Assembly: GCA_964016885.1 (NCBI GenBank)
Contig: OZ024740.1
Span: 340,070,001 to 340,134,000 of the forward strand
Length of the DNA: 64,000 nucleotides
Origin: Eledone cirrhosa
Taxonomy: Eukaryota
Reading direction: 5' to 3'
The translations under genes were made by a program, and so were the position numbers. The notes beneath the pieces were generated by a model. That model searched no databases. It was given only the letters and a program-made list of their open reading frames with translations, and had not been told where the DNA came from. Positions 10,565 to 28,973 of this stretch are shown here, piece after piece (position 1 is the first letter of the stretch; every line of letters starts with the position of its first letter).

Positions 10565-10760
10565 AAGAGGTAAATATTTATATTATATTTTTTAATGTAA
10601 TTTTTTAATGTATTTTGAAAAATTGATTGAATTTTACTTGTTCTGCTTATCTTAATATTAAAGTTCTGGTGTATCAAATTAACACCATTGAACAACCCTG
10701 AATCATAGACAACCTATGTATTTCTAGGGGTACCTAGTATCCCTGGACATATTAACTTAT

Positions 10761-13252
<2,492 letters not shown>

Positions 13253-13964
13253 GATAAATTCCGACCTCACACGCTTACACCTCTCCAAGACAATGTCACT
13301 GGACCGAGACCTTTGGCGGTACTCAGTAATAGAGAAGACCCGCCTTACCTAAATACAAAGTAAAAACCTACTACAGTCAATAGGCATCTCTATCAAAACA
13401 CCACCACCCCACCCCACCCCCCGTCCCACCACCTCCACCCCATCCACACCGCCCCTTTCAATGTAAAGTTATGTTGGTCCCACAACATCCAGGCCGAAAC
13501 AAATGAGATCGTGTAGGTGTCACGACAAAAAAACACACAGTCCACGCTGTAAATGTGGCCGTGTAGGCAACACGGTAAAAACCTCCCAGCCCCACACTGT
13601 AAATGTGGTTGGTGTTAGGAAGGGCATCCAGCTGTAGAAAACCCGCCAGACAGTCCACGCTGTAATGTGGTCGTGTAGGCAACACGGTAAAAACCTCCCA
13701 GCCCCACACTGTAAATGTGGTTGGTGTTAGGAAGGGCATCCAACTGTAGAAAACCCGCCAGACAGTCCACGCTGTAATGTGGTCGTGTAGGCAACACGGT
13801 AAAAACCTCCCAGCCCAACACTGTAAATGTGGTTGGTGTTAGGAAGGGCATCCAACTGTAGAAAACCCGCCAGACAGTCCTATGCGAGCAAGACAACCAC
13901 TCTTGCCTCAAGTGGGAAAACCCCCATCCAAACCCATGCAAGCGTGGAACACGGACGCTAAACC

Positions 13965-15980: not shown

Positions 15981-17310
15981 ATTTGTACTGTATAAAGAGG
16001 AAATTCAAGGGATTTGTGTCTATAAATTTTTACTTATCCTTAGACACGGGAGCGGTTACAAATGAAAGTAAAGAAAATATAAAACATTGATCCTAAGATC
16101 AAAGTTATTCAAAAGTTATTCAAAACATTGGTTATGTTTAGCTTTAGGTATATAAAGTGGCTGACGATAACATTAAAGGAAAAATGCCGACAATAAAATG
16201 AAACAAATAAATCTGCAACACTTACTGTAAGATTATTTCTTTTCTAGGATACATATTCGACTGTCTCATCTTGTTGAGTTAATTTATTGGTGGGTGGCAC
16301 GGCTGCAAGCTGTCTATTGTGGGGGAACGATTGGTATCGAAAAAACAAATCACACATATATCATTCGGAAAATAAATTATCACAAATAAATTTTTCAGTT
16401 TATTCATTTTAAAAAAAAATTAATGGCATAAATTTACAACCTTTCGTTTGAGTTTCAACCACTTTATTGTCTGCCATTTTATATACCTAAAAGTAAACAT
16501 CCCATAAAGATTCTCATAATCAACGTCTTGTGTGTTTTCAACGTCTTTCATGTTCAAATATCCATTTCTTTCCGAGTTTTCGCAGTCTAATCATCAAGGT
16601 TGTCTTGCATTTAGACATTTTAGAACCTTTTAAACCTCAGAATCCTCCCGTTTTTATTTCTATGAATTAGCGATAGCAACAACTATAAACTTCTGTATTC
16701 AAATCAAACCCGCGGGATTGGTGCGATTAAGGGTCAGCTTACGTTCTAAAAGTCCACGCCCGTCTCCAAGAAAACACACTTAAGCAAAAAGGATGCAGTC
16801 TGCAGTCGTGGTAAGAATGAAACTGAAAACGCGCCTCTGACCCTCAGCTGTTTGTTAGTCGGTGTCGCCTGGATGCTCGAGCCGGTTTTAAGATCCAGTC
16901 TACTTCTGCATATATGTGAGAGATCATTGTGAAGCCATCATTTCAGAGGAGGTGGAATCATTTCTGAATGGGGGGGGGGGGGACCAAATTTGGACAATTT
17001 AGTTGTAGTGATCAGATTAGCTCTTTGCATTCTAAAATGGTCGATATGCAATAAACATAACATGTACATAATTGTACCGCATATCCAAATAGATGTGTGT
17101 TTTCGTAGTTTAGGGATAAAATATAATTATTGGAAGAGGAACCGCCACTGTATATATATATAATTAAAAGAAATTATGCTCTGCGCCCTTTCCTAAGGAG
17201 TTAATATATCGAGCTTCTTCGCATTTGGTAAGAAACTGGTATTATACCCAATATATTCATTTCCTATATATATATATATATATATACATACATACATACA
17301 TATAGATAGA

Positions 17311-19851
17311 TTTCTTTATTTACCATAAAGGCATAAAAAGAAGGGACAAATACAAAGGGGGAGTTTACATATAATCGAGTAAAAAGGGTGTAACATGAAA
17401 ATAATCGAAAATAACCTCAAAAGGGAGGGGACGTGATGGTGGTTGCACACACCCCCGAAAAAGTGTGCAATCCTTTGCCCGGGGAGCACATGGAGAAGGT
17501 GCTCCCCTCTCCTTTACTTCTTTACCTACATGATGGTATACAGAGAAGGCCCATTTACACGAGCCATTCTCGCCACTATCACCCACCTTTCATAAAACTG
17601 CCTGTGGCCAAGCACCTCTCTCTCCATTCTTATCCTTCTTCCGAAGTGATATCGGAAGGAGTAGACCAGACTATGGCCAGAGAGGAAGTTGCCTGACCTC
17701 AGACCTTTCAATCGTGTCCACCAAACAACCTCTTTCAACATGGCTATTACGCACAGAAAAACCGCCTTTGCTTCCTTTGTGAAGAGGGGAGGCGGTTTGA
17801 TTGTCATCACGGACTCGGCGGTCAATTTAATCGGCGCCACCCGCGACAGCAGTCGTTCGGTGTAGCCCCACAGATCAGCCACGCCCGGACATTGCACCAA
17901 TGCGTGCGCAACGGTTTCTTCGTGACGCACGCATCTAGGGCAAATCTTTTTTGAGGGATCCCTGCCCGGGCGCCCGTGTCTGTAGAGCCTCTCTCGAACG
18001 GGTAGAGCCCCCCCCCCCCCGGTAGCACTGCCAGGCCAGTGACTTCTGGAAGTTGTCCATTGGTCCTGGGCCGAAAGTCCTACCGAACAGGCTGGCCAGT
18101 TCGTCTTCTTCCATGTCCAGCGACTCTCCAAGGGTGTCATCGCCCCTGCTAGCCACCAGCCCTCTATAGAATGATGAGGTGGATTCTCCACCGATGGCCG
18201 GGCCCGCTTGCCAGAGAGCCCTGAGCGCCTGAGCACACTCAGTGTGCCAGTCTCCCAGTTTTCCGGATCTTTGCTTGACCCAGGACTGTAGCTCGGTGAG
18301 CGAGACGAGTCTCGGAAAGGCTCGTTTCACGAACGGAGCCCACACCGGTTGACCAGTGAGGAATACCTGTAGGTGCCGTAGCCTTAATGCGTGCCTACGC
18401 ATCATCAACCACGGCATCCCCAGCCCTCCTTTCGAAGGTTGTTGGCAGTAGATGGATCTTCTCACCATAGGAGGGCGCTTCTTCCAAAGAAATTGGAAGA
18501 GCATGCGTTCCATGGTGGTGAGTGTTTCCTTAGGGCAAGGCACAACAGTCAGGCGGTAGTAAGTGACGGACGCTATGTAAATGTTCGCCACCTCCGCCCG
18601 GCCTTTTAGGGACAGCTTACACTTGGCCCATTTCTGGGTTAGTGCAAACACCTTGTTCGTAACCTCGTTCCAGTTCTTTTCCACCTGGAGGTCCGGTCCA
18701 AACCAGACCCCAAGCAACTTTACCGGGCCCTCCGTCCAGTGTCCGACGACACCGTCAGGAGGCATCGGTCTGCCTCTCCACGTTCCGAGTTGCAGCCCGA
18801 TGGATTTTTCCCGGTTCAGTTTCGCTCCTGACAACCTGTCGTACTCCTCCAGTAAGGTACCGATCGCCTCGATCTCCGAGTCGGTCGATACCATTATTGT
18901 TACGTCATCGGCGTAGGCCGACACCGCTTTGCTCAATCCTGGTTCCAGGGGGATACCCTGCAACAACTCCAACTTCCTCAGTAAAGGCTCGAGAGTCAAT
19001 ACGTACAGAAGGGAGGAGAGAGGGCACCCCTGTCGAATGGATCGTGTGATTTCGAACGGCTTCGAAAGGTAGCCGTTCACCTTGATCCTAGAACAGATGT
19101 GGTTGCTATGTAAGGCAGTTATCCAGCCTCTGAAAACAGGACCGAACCCAGCCGCCGCTAGCACCGCATCCAGGTAGCCATGGTCGACCCTATCGAAGGC
19201 CTTAGACTGATCCAAGTTGATCAGGGCCCCACCGAAGCCGGGTTTGTTGCCAACCCTCTCTATGATGTATCGCATGAGGTGGAGGTTATCGTGAATGGAT
19301 CTGGATGGGATAGCACATGTCTGCGCATCTCCCACCAGGCCACCCACGACAAGCGCCAACCTCTTTGCTAACACCTTGGCCAAAATCTTTAACTCTGTGT
19401 TTAGCAGGGTTATGGGCCGAAAATTATTTATACTATCCCCCTTGTTCTCGTCCTTCCTCACCAGCGTGACTACGCCCTTGGCTACAGAACAAGGAATTCT
19501 CCCGTTCTGCTGCCAATTGCAGTAGACCGCTTCGAGGAGTTCGGAGAAGAAGACCGGCATTGCTAAATAAAGTTCGTAAGGTATACCATCGAGACCTGGA
19601 GATTTGCGTCTGCTGCATTGGCTCAGCGCATCTCCGATCTCATCAGCCGAGATTGGTCCCTCGCAGGACTCTGCCTCTTCGCTCGAGAGACACGGCAGGC
19701 CGTCGAGGTATGGACCGAAATCCACGCCCCCGCCCGGACCCTCGCCTCCCCCGAACAATCGGGCAAAGTGCCTTTGAAAGGCCTCGCACATCTGCTTAGG
19801 CTCCCGGATCACCCGTCCATCTTCGTCTTGCAACGACCGGATGGTGGATCG
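17311..19851 (-). mobile_element. 5'-truncated Tx1/L1-clade LINE (ORF2 RT plus C-terminal cysteine-rich domain)
   Basis: KSPGLDG, FRPITLLN, LDQSKAFDRV, IRQGCPLS, AYADD, CPRC...ETVAHALVQC; one frameshift in the C-run at about 18010; candidate TSD atagataga. Confidence 0.93.
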
Positions 19852-19866
19852 ATAGATAGATAGATA

Positions 19867-22282
19867 CAGTTGTCCCCCGGTATTCGAGGGGGTTACGTTC
19901 CTGGACCACCCGCGAAGAGAGGAAAACACCGAATATTGGACATGGTCCATAAAAATGCCTATAAACATCAAAACTGTAGCGGTTGTCTCCCTTGTTTTGA
20001 TTGGGATCTAGACGGGAAGTGGAACCCTTTCTGCAACTTCCGGTCAGAGCCCTATAAAACTAACAACGTTAAGCTTCCTTCCTCTCTCTTTGCCTTTTCG
20101 GCACCAGGTCAAGAGTCTTCTCATTTGGCTCTGCCATTAATTTGGCCAACCGGCGCCTGGCCTTAGCCAGGCGCCCTCTGCCAGCCGCGTTTGCCTGGCA
20201 ATCAAAACGGTAACTACTAACTTTGTTTCATTCTAACATCTATCTTTGACATGTCAAGTATTCTATCTACCGTTAATTAAATATTATATACACAAACATT
20301 GTCTCGTTTTGTTACATTCATACAACCAGTAATCTCGCTATATTGGTGACCCTGACGTGATACGAACACGCAGCCGTTCATCGCTATAAGTGGTCACCCC
20401 CAAAAAAAGAAAAAAATAGCACATCTGGTTTTGTGAGTAACATTACGAATACACGGCAAATTTAGCGACAAACTATGAAAATACTCAAGGACACGCACAC
20501 ACGCACATGTGGAATTCGCACAGACATACTTTTTCTCTCACGCATCAATTAACTGTCGCATTTCACCAATATATATATATATATGTTTCTCGTTTCTTAC
20601 AACGAACACTTTCAAAACAAAAAAAACATTTCACGATATATATATATGTTTCTCGTTTCTTACAACGAACTCTTTCAAAACACACAAAAAAAAAAAAAAA
20701 AAAAGAAATTTGATATTCTTTAAAAAACATTTCAACAGGAACATTTATTTTCGATGAACCATTGCCTTTTGTTCTTCGTTTTCTTCATCGTTCAAGTTTT
20801 TTTTTTTTTTTTTTTTTTTTCCAAAAGTTCACACCTATAATTATGCTGATTGAAGCTTTTCTTTTTCATCATTGTCACTTTCAAAATTGCACTATCATTT
20901 TCTCGCGCGTTAGAAATATTTTTTTTCAACCTTGTATTGGCACGTGTAGGCAGCATAAATTCTCGATTCACTGAGATGTCTCTTACTCACAGACAGCCGC
21001 ACGCCATTTATCACCAGGGATTCTTCAGCCTTAAGCTATATTCTTCTATTTGCCGGTTTATAAATTTACAATGTAAATTTACCGTTGATAACCGCGCATT
21101 TATTAAGAATGCTTATTTCTCTGGTCGCTGGCCTCTTGACCCTTCCAGGTCAACGCATTCTCAACATCGACCATCAACTTCGGCTGCTATTTCTAGCACT
21201 TTGCGCAACTCATTTTTTTCTAAAAAAAAATTTTTTTACTGTGAATTTAAACACCGAATACGCTCACTCAGCGAGACAACAGCAGCAGCAACAGCAATAT
21301 AACAGCAACAGCAATACATCAACACAGCTTCACCAAAGCCAGAGAATTTATTTTTGCAGCACTCTTCCTGTGAGAAAATCCATTCGGAGGTTGGAAATTT
21401 CACGATGTACCACAGAACAGAAACCACCTGCATTCATTCTCTGGAACACACTTTCTTTCCTGCTGTCATGTGATTGCACACCTGTGAACTATATTTTGAA
21501 CTTTGAGCTCTTCTATTACTTTTACTTTATTACATTGTATCTTTGGGTGATGGATAGATGGATGTCCAGTCGTTCTCTGGCCAAGAGCGGTTGGTTACCT
21601 TGATATCTATCATTGATTTTTCCAGACATTCTTTTGTCGTAATTTCCATGCCTGTTACAACATTCTCGCCAACTTGCTACATATTTTCATTTCGATTTTT
21701 ATACACTAAAATTCTGGCGGGAGGTTATGTAGCGGTTGTCTCCCTTGTTTTGATTGGGATCTAGACGGGAAGTGGAACCCTTTCTGCAACTTCCGGTCAG
21801 AGCCCTATAAAACTAACAACGTTAAGCTTCCTTCCTCTCTCTTTGCCTTTTCGGCACCAGGTCAAGAGTCTTCTCATTTGGCTCTGCCATTAATTTGGCC
21901 AACCGGCGCCTGGCCTTAGCCAGGCGCCCTCTGCCAGCCGCGTTTGCCTGGCAATCAAAACGGTAACTACTAACTTTGTTTCATTCTAACATCTATCTTT
22001 GACATGTCAAGTATTCTATCTACCGTTAATTAAATATTATATACACAAACATTGTCTCGTTTTGTTACATTCATACAACCAGTAATCTCGCTATATGCCT
22101 ATAAACATCAAAACATAACCTAAAATATAGGGCGGCAAATACAGTATATTGTTATTAATAATTTAGCGTTAAAAAGCGTAAAAAAATATATATTGCCACG
22201 ATAAAAGCCATTAAAAATTCATTTACGATTCCGCGAATAGTTAGGTTCTGATGAAAAATCCGCGAATGCCGGGGGTACATTG
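19867..22282. mobile_element. Tigger/pogo-like MITE interrupted by an LTR element
   Basis: Imperfect 23-bp TIRs cagttgtcccccggtattcgagg / ccgcgaatgccgggggtacattg, each flanked by TA. Confidence 0.75.
19975..22095 (+). mobile_element. Non-autonomous LTR retroelement (TRIM/LARD-like), LTRs 19975-20342 and 21728-22095
   Basis: Two apparently identical 368-bp direct repeats (tgtagcg...cgctata), tRNA-Trp-type PBS at 20344, PPT-like ggcgggagg before the 3' LTR, non-coding interior. Confidence 0.92.
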
Positions 22283-25005: not shown

Positions 25006-28000
25006 ATGGCCAATATAAGAGTTGGATGTGTGAATGCACGCGGCTTGGGGATGTCCTGGAAACAGGGCAAACTCTTAAATGACCTCAGGTCGCATAGAGT
25101 GGATATAATGGTTATTTGCGAGTCCAGGATCAGCAGCGAGCGCCAACTGGCCCCCATCTTCGACGACTTTGAGATCTACGCATCTCTCTGTCAGCCGAGG
25201 GGTGGGGTGGGGTTGTCGTTCTGCTGCGAAAATACCTGGGTCTTGCCACACAGAAGGTACACCTGGACCCGGAGGGTCGACTGGTGGTTTTAGACGTTGG
25301 CAGTGGTGAAGGTAGAGCTTTCAGGCTGGTGGCAGCGTATGCCCCATCTGGGACACCGCGACCGGACTTCTTCCGACGCCTGGAGATTTTCCTGGGAACG
25401 TCTCGCTCCTTGCTTTTAGTGGGGGACTGGAATGGTATCCTGGATGCACGTTGGGACTATGTAGGGGCATGTCCCGATAGAGGGGGGTGTAACAGCCTCA
25501 AACGATTAATCGGCCGATTTGATCTGGCCGATAGATATCGACTAGATTTTCCGACTGTGCCACGTTGGATGTGGAGTAATCTCAGCGGAACATCTAGGTC
25601 GTACTTAGATAGGTTCCTAGTTAGAAATAAGGATAGGGACATATTAAGCTGTCCACGAATGTTCATGGTTGACTATTCGGATTACAAGTTGGTGACCGGA
25701 GTGGTCAACCTTGATAGAACTCATAGACAGGGACCCGATTACTGGAAGCTAAACTTGTCTTTACCGACAAACAAAGCTTACAGTAAGCGGATTAGCACAC
25801 TAGTTAAGCAGCGTTTGACGGGGGCAATTGTCAACAACAGGTGGTGGGGCTCTCACAAGAGAGAAATTAGAATAGAATCGATAGGTTTTAGTCGGGAATT
25901 AGCATCAGATAGGAATAGAACTGAAAGGGAATTAACAAATAGAGTAGAAGAGGCGATTAGGAGTGGCAACGTGGCCGGCGTGCTGGCGTCAAGAACGGCC
26001 CTAGACCAGTTCTTTGATGCGAAGGACGAGGGCTGCGTTGTCAGGAGTAAAATACGTGCTCTGGGTAACGAGGGAGCCAAAGCTGTTAGCTGGGCCCGAG
26101 TGACAGAGGCAAAAAGTGGAAACAAGTCCACGATTCGGTCTTTGAAGGACCAGGATGGAAGCGTGATCCTTGAACCTGAGCGGATGAGCGCGGCCTTTCA
26201 ACGGCGCTTTGCACGACTGTTCGGGAGGGGCGGCGGGACGGGTGGGGCCATGGATTTCGGTCCATACCTCGACGGTCTGGCGCGGCTCTCGGACGGGGAG
26301 GCGAAGTCCTGCGAGAGGCCGATTTCAGCCGCTGAAATAGGGGAAGCGCTGAGCCAATGCGGCAAACGCAAATCTCCGGGTCTCGATGGTCTACCATACG
26401 AACTTTATGTAGCGATGCCGGGCTTGTTCTCCGGTCTCCTCGAGACGGTCTACAGCAACTGGCAACAGAACGGGATAATTCCCAGTTCTGTGATCAAGGA
26501 CGTAGTCACGCTGGTGAGGAAGGACGAGAACAAGGGGGATGACATAGATAACTTCAGGCCCATAACTCTGCTAAACACAGAGTTAAAGATTTTGGCCAAG
26601 GTGTTAGCGAAGAGGTTGGCGCTTGTCGTCGGGAACCTGGTGGGAGAAGCGCAGACATGCGCAATCCCGTCCAGGTCCATACACGACAACCTCCACCTCA
26701 TGCGATACATCGTAGAGAGGGTAGGGCCCTGATCAACTTGGATCAATCTAAGGCGTTCGATAGGGTTGACCATCGGTACCTGGATGCGGTGCTCGCGGCG
26801 GCAGGCTTCGGACCCGTTTTCAGGGGCTGGATTGCTGCAATGCACAGCAGCAACACCTGCTCAAGAGTCAAGGTGAACGGCTACCTCTCGGAGCCGTTCC
26901 AAATCACGCGATCCATTCGACAGGGATGCCCTCTCTCCTCCCTCCTGTATGTGCTGGCTCTCGAGCCACTACTGCGGAAGCTGGAGCTGTTGCAGGGAAT
27001 CCCCTTGGAACCGGGATTGCGGAAAGCGGTGTCGGCCTACGCCGATGACGTGACAGTAATGGTGTCGTGCGCCTCGGAAATCGGGCAGATAGGCACCTTA
27101 CTGAGGAATATGAAAGGTTCACAGGAGCCAAGCTGAACCGGGACAAGTCCGTCGGTTTGCAACTCGGGACGTGGAGGGGCAAAACGATGCCCTCCTACGG
27201 CATCGTCGGACGCTGGACGGAGGGACCGGTGAAGCTGCTCGGGGTCTGGTTCGGACCGGACCTCCAGGTGGAGAAAAACTGGGACGAGGTAACGGGCAAG
27301 GTGTTTGCACTCGCCCAGAAGTGGGCCGAGTGCAAACTATCCCTGAAAGGTCGAGCGGAGGTGGCGAACGCTTATATAGCGTCCGTCATCTACTACCGCT
27401 TGACCATCGTGCCTTGCCCAGAGAAAACACTCGCCAAAATGGAGCGCGCGCTCTTCCGATTTCTTTGGAAGAAGAGGGCTCCTTTGGTGAGAAGATCCAT
27501 CTGCTGTCAACACCCTTCGAACGGAGGGCTGGTGATGCCGTGGCTGACGATGCGTAGACACGCATTAAGGCTACGGCACCTCCAAGTATTCCTCACCGGT
27601 CAGCCGGTGTGGGCCCTGTTTGTGAGGCGAGCCTTTCCGAGACTCGTCTCACTCACCGAGCTGCAATCCTGGGTCAAGCAAAGACCGAGAAAAGTGGGCG
27701 ACTGGCACATTGAATGTGCCCAGGCGCTCACGGCCCTCTGGCAAACGGATCCGGCAATCAGTGTAGACTCAACCTCAACATTCTATAGAGGGTTGGTGCG
27801 CAGTAAGTGCGACGACGCTCTCGGAGAGGCTCTGGGCATGGAGGACGGCGAGCTGGCCAGTCTGTTCGGTAGGACGTTTGGCCCGGGACCGATGGACAAC
27901 TTCCAAAAGTCCCTGGCTTGGCAATGTTACCGAGGAGCTCTACCCGTTCGGGACAAGCTCTACAGACACGGGCGCCCGGGTAGGGACCCCTCGAAGAAGA

Positions 28001-28419
28001 TCTGTCCAAGATGCGTGCGTGACGAGGAAACCGTCGCACACGCATTCGTACACTGCCTGGGCGTTGCTGATCTGTGGGGCTATGTAGAACGACTACTGTC
28101 GCGGGTGGGACCAATCCGGTTGACCACCGAGAACATTGTCACGATCAAACCGCCTCCCCCTTTCAAAAACGAAGGAGAGGCGGTTTTCCTCTGTGTGATA
28201 GCCATGGCGAAAGAAGTTGTATGGTGGACAAGGTTGAAAGGGCTGAGGTCAGACACCTTTCTCTCCGGCCAACAACTGGTCTTTTTTTTCAAGTACCACT
28301 TTAGAAGAAGGATCAGAATGGAGAGAGAGGTGCTCTACCTTAGCAAGTTTTATGAAAGGTGGGTGAAAGTAGCGAGAATGGCTCGAGTGAATGGGCCTTC
28401 TCTCTATATCAGCCTGTAG
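25006..28419 (+). pseudogene. Tx1 ORF2 (APE endonuclease plus RT), three frameshifts
   Basis: NARGL, AYAP, GDWN, SYLDR and SDYK (APE); QGCPLS and YADD (RT); ORFs at 25006, 25284, 26657 and 27067. Confidence 0.92.
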
Positions 28420-28973
28420 GTGAGAGAGGAGAAGAATGAGAAGAGGAAGGAAGCACCCGCTCTTTGTGCTCCTGAAGAGGAGGGTTGCACATTTTTTAGG
28501 GGGTGTGTGCGACCCATGTCAACGCCCCTCCCTATTGAGGACATCGATTGTTAAATTAAATTTGTTATATGTTTTTTACACGTCTTTTTAAATGTATGTA
28601 AACTCCCCCCTTTGTATTTGTCCCAATCTTTGATGCCCTGGTGGCAAATAAATAGAAATATATATCAATAGACACCAATCTCTCCCCCTCTCTATATCTA
28701 ATATACAACACACTCTCCCAACCTTCCTCTATATATCAACTAACACCAATCTCTCCCCCTCTCTATATTTATCTCTCCCATCTGTCTCTGTATAATATGT
28801 ATATAAATTGTAGCGCATCTATAAATAGATGTGTGTTTTGGTAGTTTGGGGAGAAAAATATAATTATTGGTGGGGGTCAGCCGATTTCTTCCAGAAAGGA
28901 AAAAGGGTAAGAAAGAAAAGTGAGAAAGAGACCTAGAGGGAGAATATGCACGCACACACGCACACACACACGC

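Follow-up and report, generated by a model that had tools for sequence, protein, structure and literature searches.

The window, by which we mean the whole 64,000-nt stretch of Eledone cirrhosa DNA analyzed here, contains an element of 2121 nt (19975-22095) that consists of two identical long terminal repeats (LTRs) and an interior of 1385 nt. Its unusual part is the start of the interior, where two tRNA-Trp primer-binding sites (PBSs) and two LTR ends follow one another. The features are as follows.

19956..19974, plus strand: left copy of the target duplication, 19 bp (the norm for the family is 4 bp)
19975..20342, plus strand: 5' LTR, 368 nt, TGTAG...CTATA, with 0 mismatches and 0 gaps against the 3' LTR
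20335-20342, plus strand: LTR end TCGCTATA, followed by the spacer T at 20343
20344..20361, plus strand: upstream (new) 18-nt PBS for tRNA-Trp(CCA), an exact match to isodecoder L055 plus CCA
20362, plus strand: PBS position 19, an A facing tRNA A58 where T is expected; putative misincorporation at m1A58
20363..20375, plus strand: over-copied tRNA, positions 57 to 45, with 13/13 bases matching
20376..20380, plus strand: filler GTTCA, 5 nt, able to pair with GAAC of the extension
20381..20390, plus strand: second LTR end TCGCTATA (20381-20388) and AG (20389-20390), the ancestral LTR/PBS junction
20391..20402, plus strand: downstream (old) short PBS, decayed in the window copy; TGGTCACCCC is 20391-20400
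20403..21727, plus strand: remaining non-coding interior, with a polypurine tract at its end (about 21716-21727)
21728..22095, plus strand: 3' LTR, 368 nt, identical to the 5' LTR
22096..22114, plus strand: right copy of the target duplication, 19 bp, paired with 19956..19974

The longest Met-started frame in the interior has 164 codons. A Pfam search of the two longest plus-strand frames of the element and an Rfam scan of the element gave no match, and ARAGORN called no tRNA gene in the window. Judged by its sequence, this is a 2.1-kb non-autonomous LTR element with CsRn1-type hallmarks. In the CsRn1 clade of Ty3/Gypsy elements (PwRn1, AgCR), the PBS is complementary to tRNA-Trp over about 12 nt, target sites are duplicated over 4 bp, and autonomous members encode a Gag with a CHCC motif (PMC2582038). 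The tandem-PBS family, as we call the window element and its relatives with two PBSs, shares the complementarity to tRNA-Trp, its ancestral 12-nt form having the length given for the clade (PMC2582038), and it shares the 4-bp duplication, which is present in 22 of the 25 fetched copies whose two LTRs could both be resolved (the other three have 6, 0 and 0). It differs from the clade in being non-coding (CHCC Gag and PR-RT-RH-IN pol are absent from the window element), in having a full 18-nt PBS with its extension ahead of the short PBS, and in LTRs that end in TA, not CA. With two LTRs, a PBS, a polypurine tract, no coding capacity and many recent copies, the family answers to the description of TRIM/LARD-like non-autonomous elements; its 2.1 kb falls between the usual sizes of the two classes.

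The 19-bp target duplication of the window copy stands against the 4 bp of those 22 copies. Contigs from other copies of the host repeat span the insertion site and are consistent with the 19-mer being present once, and the long duplication suggests an aberrant, uncoupled integration. Among the contigs of four runs compared with the region, one low-depth contig from a second organism was left out of the evidence. Elsewhere in the window lie an inverted pair of RT-coding repeats (17306-19848 and 26127-28663, 81% identical), a minus-strand RVT_1 match at 17935-20007 and a long minisatellite with an 8-10-nt repeat (10596-13254).

Genes for tRNA-Trp(CCA) are present in the host (ARAGORN on L055, L059-L070 and L074). 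They were found by pattern searches; a genome-wide tRNA family search, in which 63 candidates were scored, returned no Trp gene. About 45 gene copies form a tandem array on C4 (353.39-353.49 Mb), nearly all with A57. Window positions 20344-20375 match gene L070 plus CCA at 30 of 32 bases, differing at positions 10 and 19; when isodecoder L055 is used instead, position 19 is the sole mismatch. Counted on the tRNA-Trp gene, PBS position 19 is opposite A58 of the T-loop, and the match stops at tRNA position 45. Reversed-pattern controls gave 0 matches in 3 Gb, so the tRNA match is not due to chance. Because the over-long copy contains the complement of CCA, its source is the mature tRNA and not the gene. 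The sequence-only reading had proposed a PBS extending some 32 nt into tRNA-Trp, an A in place of the expected T at position 19 (20362), and a second copy resembling an LTR end and PBS. All three stand: aligned to the host genes, the match continues beyond 18 nt to 32 nt with exactly these coordinates, the A faces A58, and TCGCTATA at 20381-20388 is followed by AG and by a short PBS beginning at 20391. To these we can add that position 10 also differs from the major tRNA-Trp gene and that the tandem structure is family-wide. A group of near-identical dispersed tRNA-like sequences with varying anticodons (L033, L035-L043) is, from its sequence, probably a tRNA-derived SINE.

The tandem unit occurs in hundreds of copies across the genome, the LTR end plus PBS being matched exactly 428 times and the unit with its A at position 19, also exactly, 511 times; the inserted unit measures 46-47 nt. 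Among 57 copies picked regardless of position 19 (60 units minus 3 with a different junction), 55 have A, two have G and none has T. A genome-wide search for bases other than A at this position yielded 37 matches; five are members of the tandem-PBS family with G, and no standard junction of the family with T is found among the 37. The use of G at position 19 as a mark of fresh misreading within the family was considered and rejected; three of six such copies retain the template-type PBS. The tip of U5 (the last ~25 nt of the LTR) is much more variable among copies than the PBS unit. On C14, 13 copies of the unit lie between 21.37 and 21.46 Mb, about 4-6 kb apart with one larger gap, and are probably the product of tandem amplification.

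The ancestral state was sought among loci with a short PBS. A pattern of the 12-nt PBS followed by an A-run has 171 matches in the genome, the first 30 of which were fetched. Of these, 21 are relatives with LTR-AG-12-nt PBS and no extension, six are tandem (L380 included) and three were set aside (L384 and L391, which look like other families, and L375, which has no LTR). L242 is a further relative with a single 12-nt PBS. In older relatives the downstream short PBS matches tRNA-Trp over 12 nt. A tree of 55 rows was computed with the PBS region left out (midpoint root, no outgroup). Every standard tandem copy falls within a single starred clade (34 rows; 100/98), and the copies that branch off more deeply have a single PBS. 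Also inside this clade are three copies with a true single PBS and a tandem copy whose junction differs and which has T at position 19 (L233/L316). The PBS state requires 5 changes on the best tree versus 18 for shuffled labels, and the tandem state may have a single origin. Since single-PBS relatives exist and the tandem copies are nested within them, the older of the two sites is the downstream PBS, and the unit was inserted in front of it; this order of events is well supported. An older tandem subfamily has a second unit that reproduces exactly the subfamily's own LTR end, spacer and 12-nt PBS. The internal copy of the LTR end has tracked the real one, from TTGTTATA to TCGCTATA (window 20335-20342 versus 20381-20388). 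Among the copies compared with the window (L180, L181, L190 and L321), intermediates combine the new form of the LTR end with the old form of the internal copy, which suggests that template switching took place later.

Whether the A at position 19 represents a misread methylated base was approached through read-throughs in other families. The search was left open at position 19 and took CCA-bearing copies that reach at least tRNA position 42. It found 26 loci, with T at 17, A at five, G at three and C at one. The base is therefore other than T in 9/26 read-throughs, versus 1/61 gene-type matches (60 T, 1 A; Fisher p=5e-5), a set of which 30 loci were fetched and the rest assigned as genes mostly by their place in the same array; G and C occur in no gene match. 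When the loci are collapsed to junctions, one five-copy family being merged, 7/21 single events are non-T, plus one mixed family. In metagenome contigs there are 18 matches (T 14, C 3, G 1), one with a mismatch at G37 and two sharing a tandem PBS. T is the commonest outcome of a read-through, and the A of the tandem-PBS family is a minority outcome. Three of the other-family copies with A at 19 match array gene L302 at both positions 19 and 20, so the count of A among the 26 may be inflated. Position 30 varies in five of the 26, and the variant bases there match gene alleles. The sequence-only reading had attributed the A to misincorporation at m1A, a modification that the host tRNA-Trp presumably carries at position 58. 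The excess of mismatches at position 19 in other families speaks for such misreading as a process; for the A of the tandem-PBS family itself, misreading of m1A58 would be the origin by extension and is moderately supported by the sequences.

The end points of the 26 read-throughs are also clustered: 20 fall within tRNA positions 35-40 and another five within 27-30. A second mismatch, at G37, is seen in one read-through. By analogy, this fits secondary blocks at modified positions 37 and 26, presumably m1G37 and m2,2G26 of tRNA-Trp. In two of the 26, the sequence runs on into the element's own LTR end (for 16 and 12 nt; 0 in 2000 shuffles), and these re-landings would repeat independently the upstream landing that we propose for the tandem-PBS family. 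Within L325-L350, a non-T base at 19 goes with T at 20 (6/8 versus 3/18; post hoc p=0.008). This association could reflect an A57 isodecoder, a T58 gene or error-prone extension from the mismatch. In a second family (L138, L145, L164 and L246, the last a coding copy), a tandem PBS is likewise fixed; its extension is 3 nt long, and position 19 is A.

In its most frequent form, the upstream PBS of the tandem-PBS family departs from the major tRNA at two bases (79/100 among the matches listed). A fully tRNA-matching version is found in nine rows of an 88-row tree and needs nine changes there (shuffled mean 8.8), at least seven of them forced by starred branches. Renewed copying of the primer into the upstream PBS would produce such a scatter, and the upstream PBS is, on these sequences, probably the site used in most cycles. 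In standard-junction copies its positions 5 and 10 have reverted to the bases dictated by the tRNA, and position 19 has never become T; therefore, either ordinary cycles probably stop at 18 or the RT nearly always inserts A. This lack of T bears on a possible role of the extension in rescuing plus-strand transfer of over-extended products, as do variants at position 30, which occur in four copies, 4/4 with the tRNA-type PBS. The position-30 variants are candidate marks of fresh read-through, with similar variation at other positions of the extension in that class over the rows covered (100 of 147).

A search for the second LTR end without the A that normally follows returned 16 matches, comprising six LTR ends that stop there, eight unit duplications and two spacer variants. 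All six of these LTRs have flush 4-bp duplications, as does a seventh, so the second LTR end serves at times as the integration end. LTRs that end at the second LTR end imply priming at the downstream PBS in those copies. Three of the lengthened copies have only an ordinary double unit at their 5' side, which points to the old PBS as their priming site. Alternatively, the lengthened copies could have been primed on a co-packaged triple-unit RNA from which the strong stop was made. Some elements have three or four units together with a normal 3' LTR. In L167 and in L312, the PBS carried within the LTR extension is not the same in both LTRs of the element, a sign of intermolecular transfer or a heteroduplex.

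We think it quite probable that the unit arose when reverse transcription read through the tRNA primer to position 45, placed an A opposite m1A58 and landed ahead of the old PBS, at the U5 end, and that about 500 copies inherited the result. The starting state is that of the older relatives, with LTR-AG-12-nt PBS only. Plus-strand strong-stop synthesis would have copied the primer past the usual halt at 58 as far as position 45, inserting A opposite the modified base. The unpaired 3' end, after a filler of 5 nt, would then have annealed to the U5 end, and the annealed strand would have re-copied the U5 end, the spacer and the old PBS. The filler GTTCA has no exact match to any sampled LTR end, and microhomology at the junction is about 2 nt; it may be a short fold-back, as it pairs with GAAC in the extension. 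Daughter copies carry the unit, and the new PBS has been refreshed repeatedly from the tRNA. Copies that integrate at the second LTR end would have been primed at the downstream PBS, leaving an LTR longer by one unit, and the expansions of the 46-nt unit to three or four copies may reflect slips between the two copies of the LTR end. The sequence-only reading had seen in the window copy a record of read-through followed by a landing upstream of the old PBS. The order of events, with 21 of the 30 fetched short-PBS loci being extension-free relatives, bears this out; the event is not specific to the window copy and would instead be one old event inherited by the whole lineage.

The main competitor accepts the same read-through and landing and derives the A at 19 from a T58 variant of the tRNA-Trp gene or from a chance mutation in the founder. 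Array gene L302 does carry A at position 19 and is still called tRNA-Trp by ARAGORN, and a tRNA without A58 would present no stop there; the background is ~0-2 changed copies of 57 per position. L302, however, is one of 61 gene-type matches, has a change in the D-arm too, and differs from the element at position 20 (T, against C in the element), which would call for a second change. The sequence-only reading had named a genomic tRNA already carrying that base as grounds for refutation; L302 comes close to such a gene, but with its T at position 20 it is not an exact case of it. Apart from position 10, at which the element matches L055, the only mismatch falls at the one position predicted beforehand (1 in 14 by chance within the extension), and the G or C found at 19 in 4/26 other-family and 4/18 metagenome read-throughs matches no gene. 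We therefore regard this origin of the A as unlikely. Recombinational capture of a genomic tRNA gene or of a piece of a tRNA-derived SINE would draw on the many tRNA-Trp genes and SINE-like tRNA repeats in the genome, but the copy starts with the complement of CCA, which the genes lack, exactly at the LTR end. Moreover, the eight loci that combine a non-T base with a longer tRNA match are seven LTR ends and one array gene; no SINE family is among them, and we give capture very little credence.

It is similarly hard to believe that the downstream part arose by fold-back, as an inverted copy of the PBS region, in place of a second LTR end and PBS. In the window RNA the first PBS does fold onto the downstream arm (-21.1 kcal/mol, z -2.5, 6/200 shuffles), and a true snap-back is known in this genome (L343). 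The same downstream PBS and LTR end nevertheless stand alone in 21 older relatives, which largely refutes a fold-back origin; in addition, the older tandem subfamily has direct repeats and a weaker fold (-14.3), the majority PBS type gives -12.4 to -18.5, and a fold-back could account for the 5-nt filler only. Selection for a PBS hairpin was likewise considered and found to be unsupported, the fold being strong in the window haplotype only.

The steps of read-through and upstream landing proposed above each have a retroviral precedent, and by analogy we regard the tandem-PBS family as a well-documented variant and not a new kind of system. Read-through of m1A58 and over-extension were reportedly treated by Muthuswami in 2002, and Pulsinelli and Temin are said to have described in 1991 misaligned plus-strand transfers in retroviral vectors that led to PBS rearrangements. 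Those vector products belong to single rounds in the laboratory, whereas the tandem-PBS event founded a lineage of ~500 copies. Plus-strand synthesis normally stops at m1A58, with minor products reaching 55/54 or, in HIV, position 37 (PMC13191261). Some lentiviruses and spumaviruses carry a tRNA-complementary primer over-extension sequence right after the PBS (PMC13191261, PMC8599865). The tandem-PBS family likewise has a tRNA-complementary stretch directly after an 18-nt PBS. Its extension reaches position 45 (14 nt), in contrast to the lentiviral one, which extends to about position 54-55 (PMC13191261), and it differs from retroviral over-extension in the mismatch at 58, the duplicated LTR end, the second PBS and its status as a fixed genomic record with the ancestral state visible. 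In mouse ETn/MusD the commonest PBS has two mismatches, and perfect versions scattered on the tree are attributed to primer copying; the PBS mutations examined there, within the 18 nt, do not coincide with modified positions of the tRNA (PMC7472051). The mismatch of the tandem-PBS family, by comparison, is at position 19, on a modified base. A literature search in which older and subscription papers were thinly covered found no published case of a tandem PBS in a genome that is mismatched at 58.

The value of the family would lie in a germ-line record of failure of the m1A58 stop, with the ancestor, the founder lineage and later products in one genome. It also offers a natural test of PBS choice and of the extent of primer copying, and one route by which LTR ends lengthen. 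If the mismatch signature is true, tRNA modifications could be inferred from assemblies alone, including those of animals without tRNA-seq. A wider generalization, which we put forward tentatively and consider rather doubtful, is that over-copying of the primer, followed by a landing further upstream, is a recurrent means by which CsRn1-type elements with a 12-nt PBS remake their start site, that the tandem PBS brings a replication advantage and unit-wise growth of the LTR, and that the mismatches and stops (58, 37, ~27) would preserve in assemblies a record of germ-line tRNA modification.

Enzymes for the non-coding copies would be provided in trans by CsRn1-type Gypsy elements. A co-resident autonomous Trp-primed element (L246) encodes a C-x2-H-x9-C-x3-C motif, DUF7041, RVT_1, RNase H and an integrase Zn domain, and one copy of the tandem-PBS family (L240) has captured a piece of pol that is 69% identical to that of L246; from these two observations we infer a helper of the CsRn1 type. 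Three loci (L239, L240 and L241, at C1 204.39 and 204.43 Mb and C2 26.31 Mb) are head-to-head joins to another Trp-primed family. The joins lie at the LTR end and PBS of that family, with ~5 nt of homology in the filler region, which suggests co-packaging with it.
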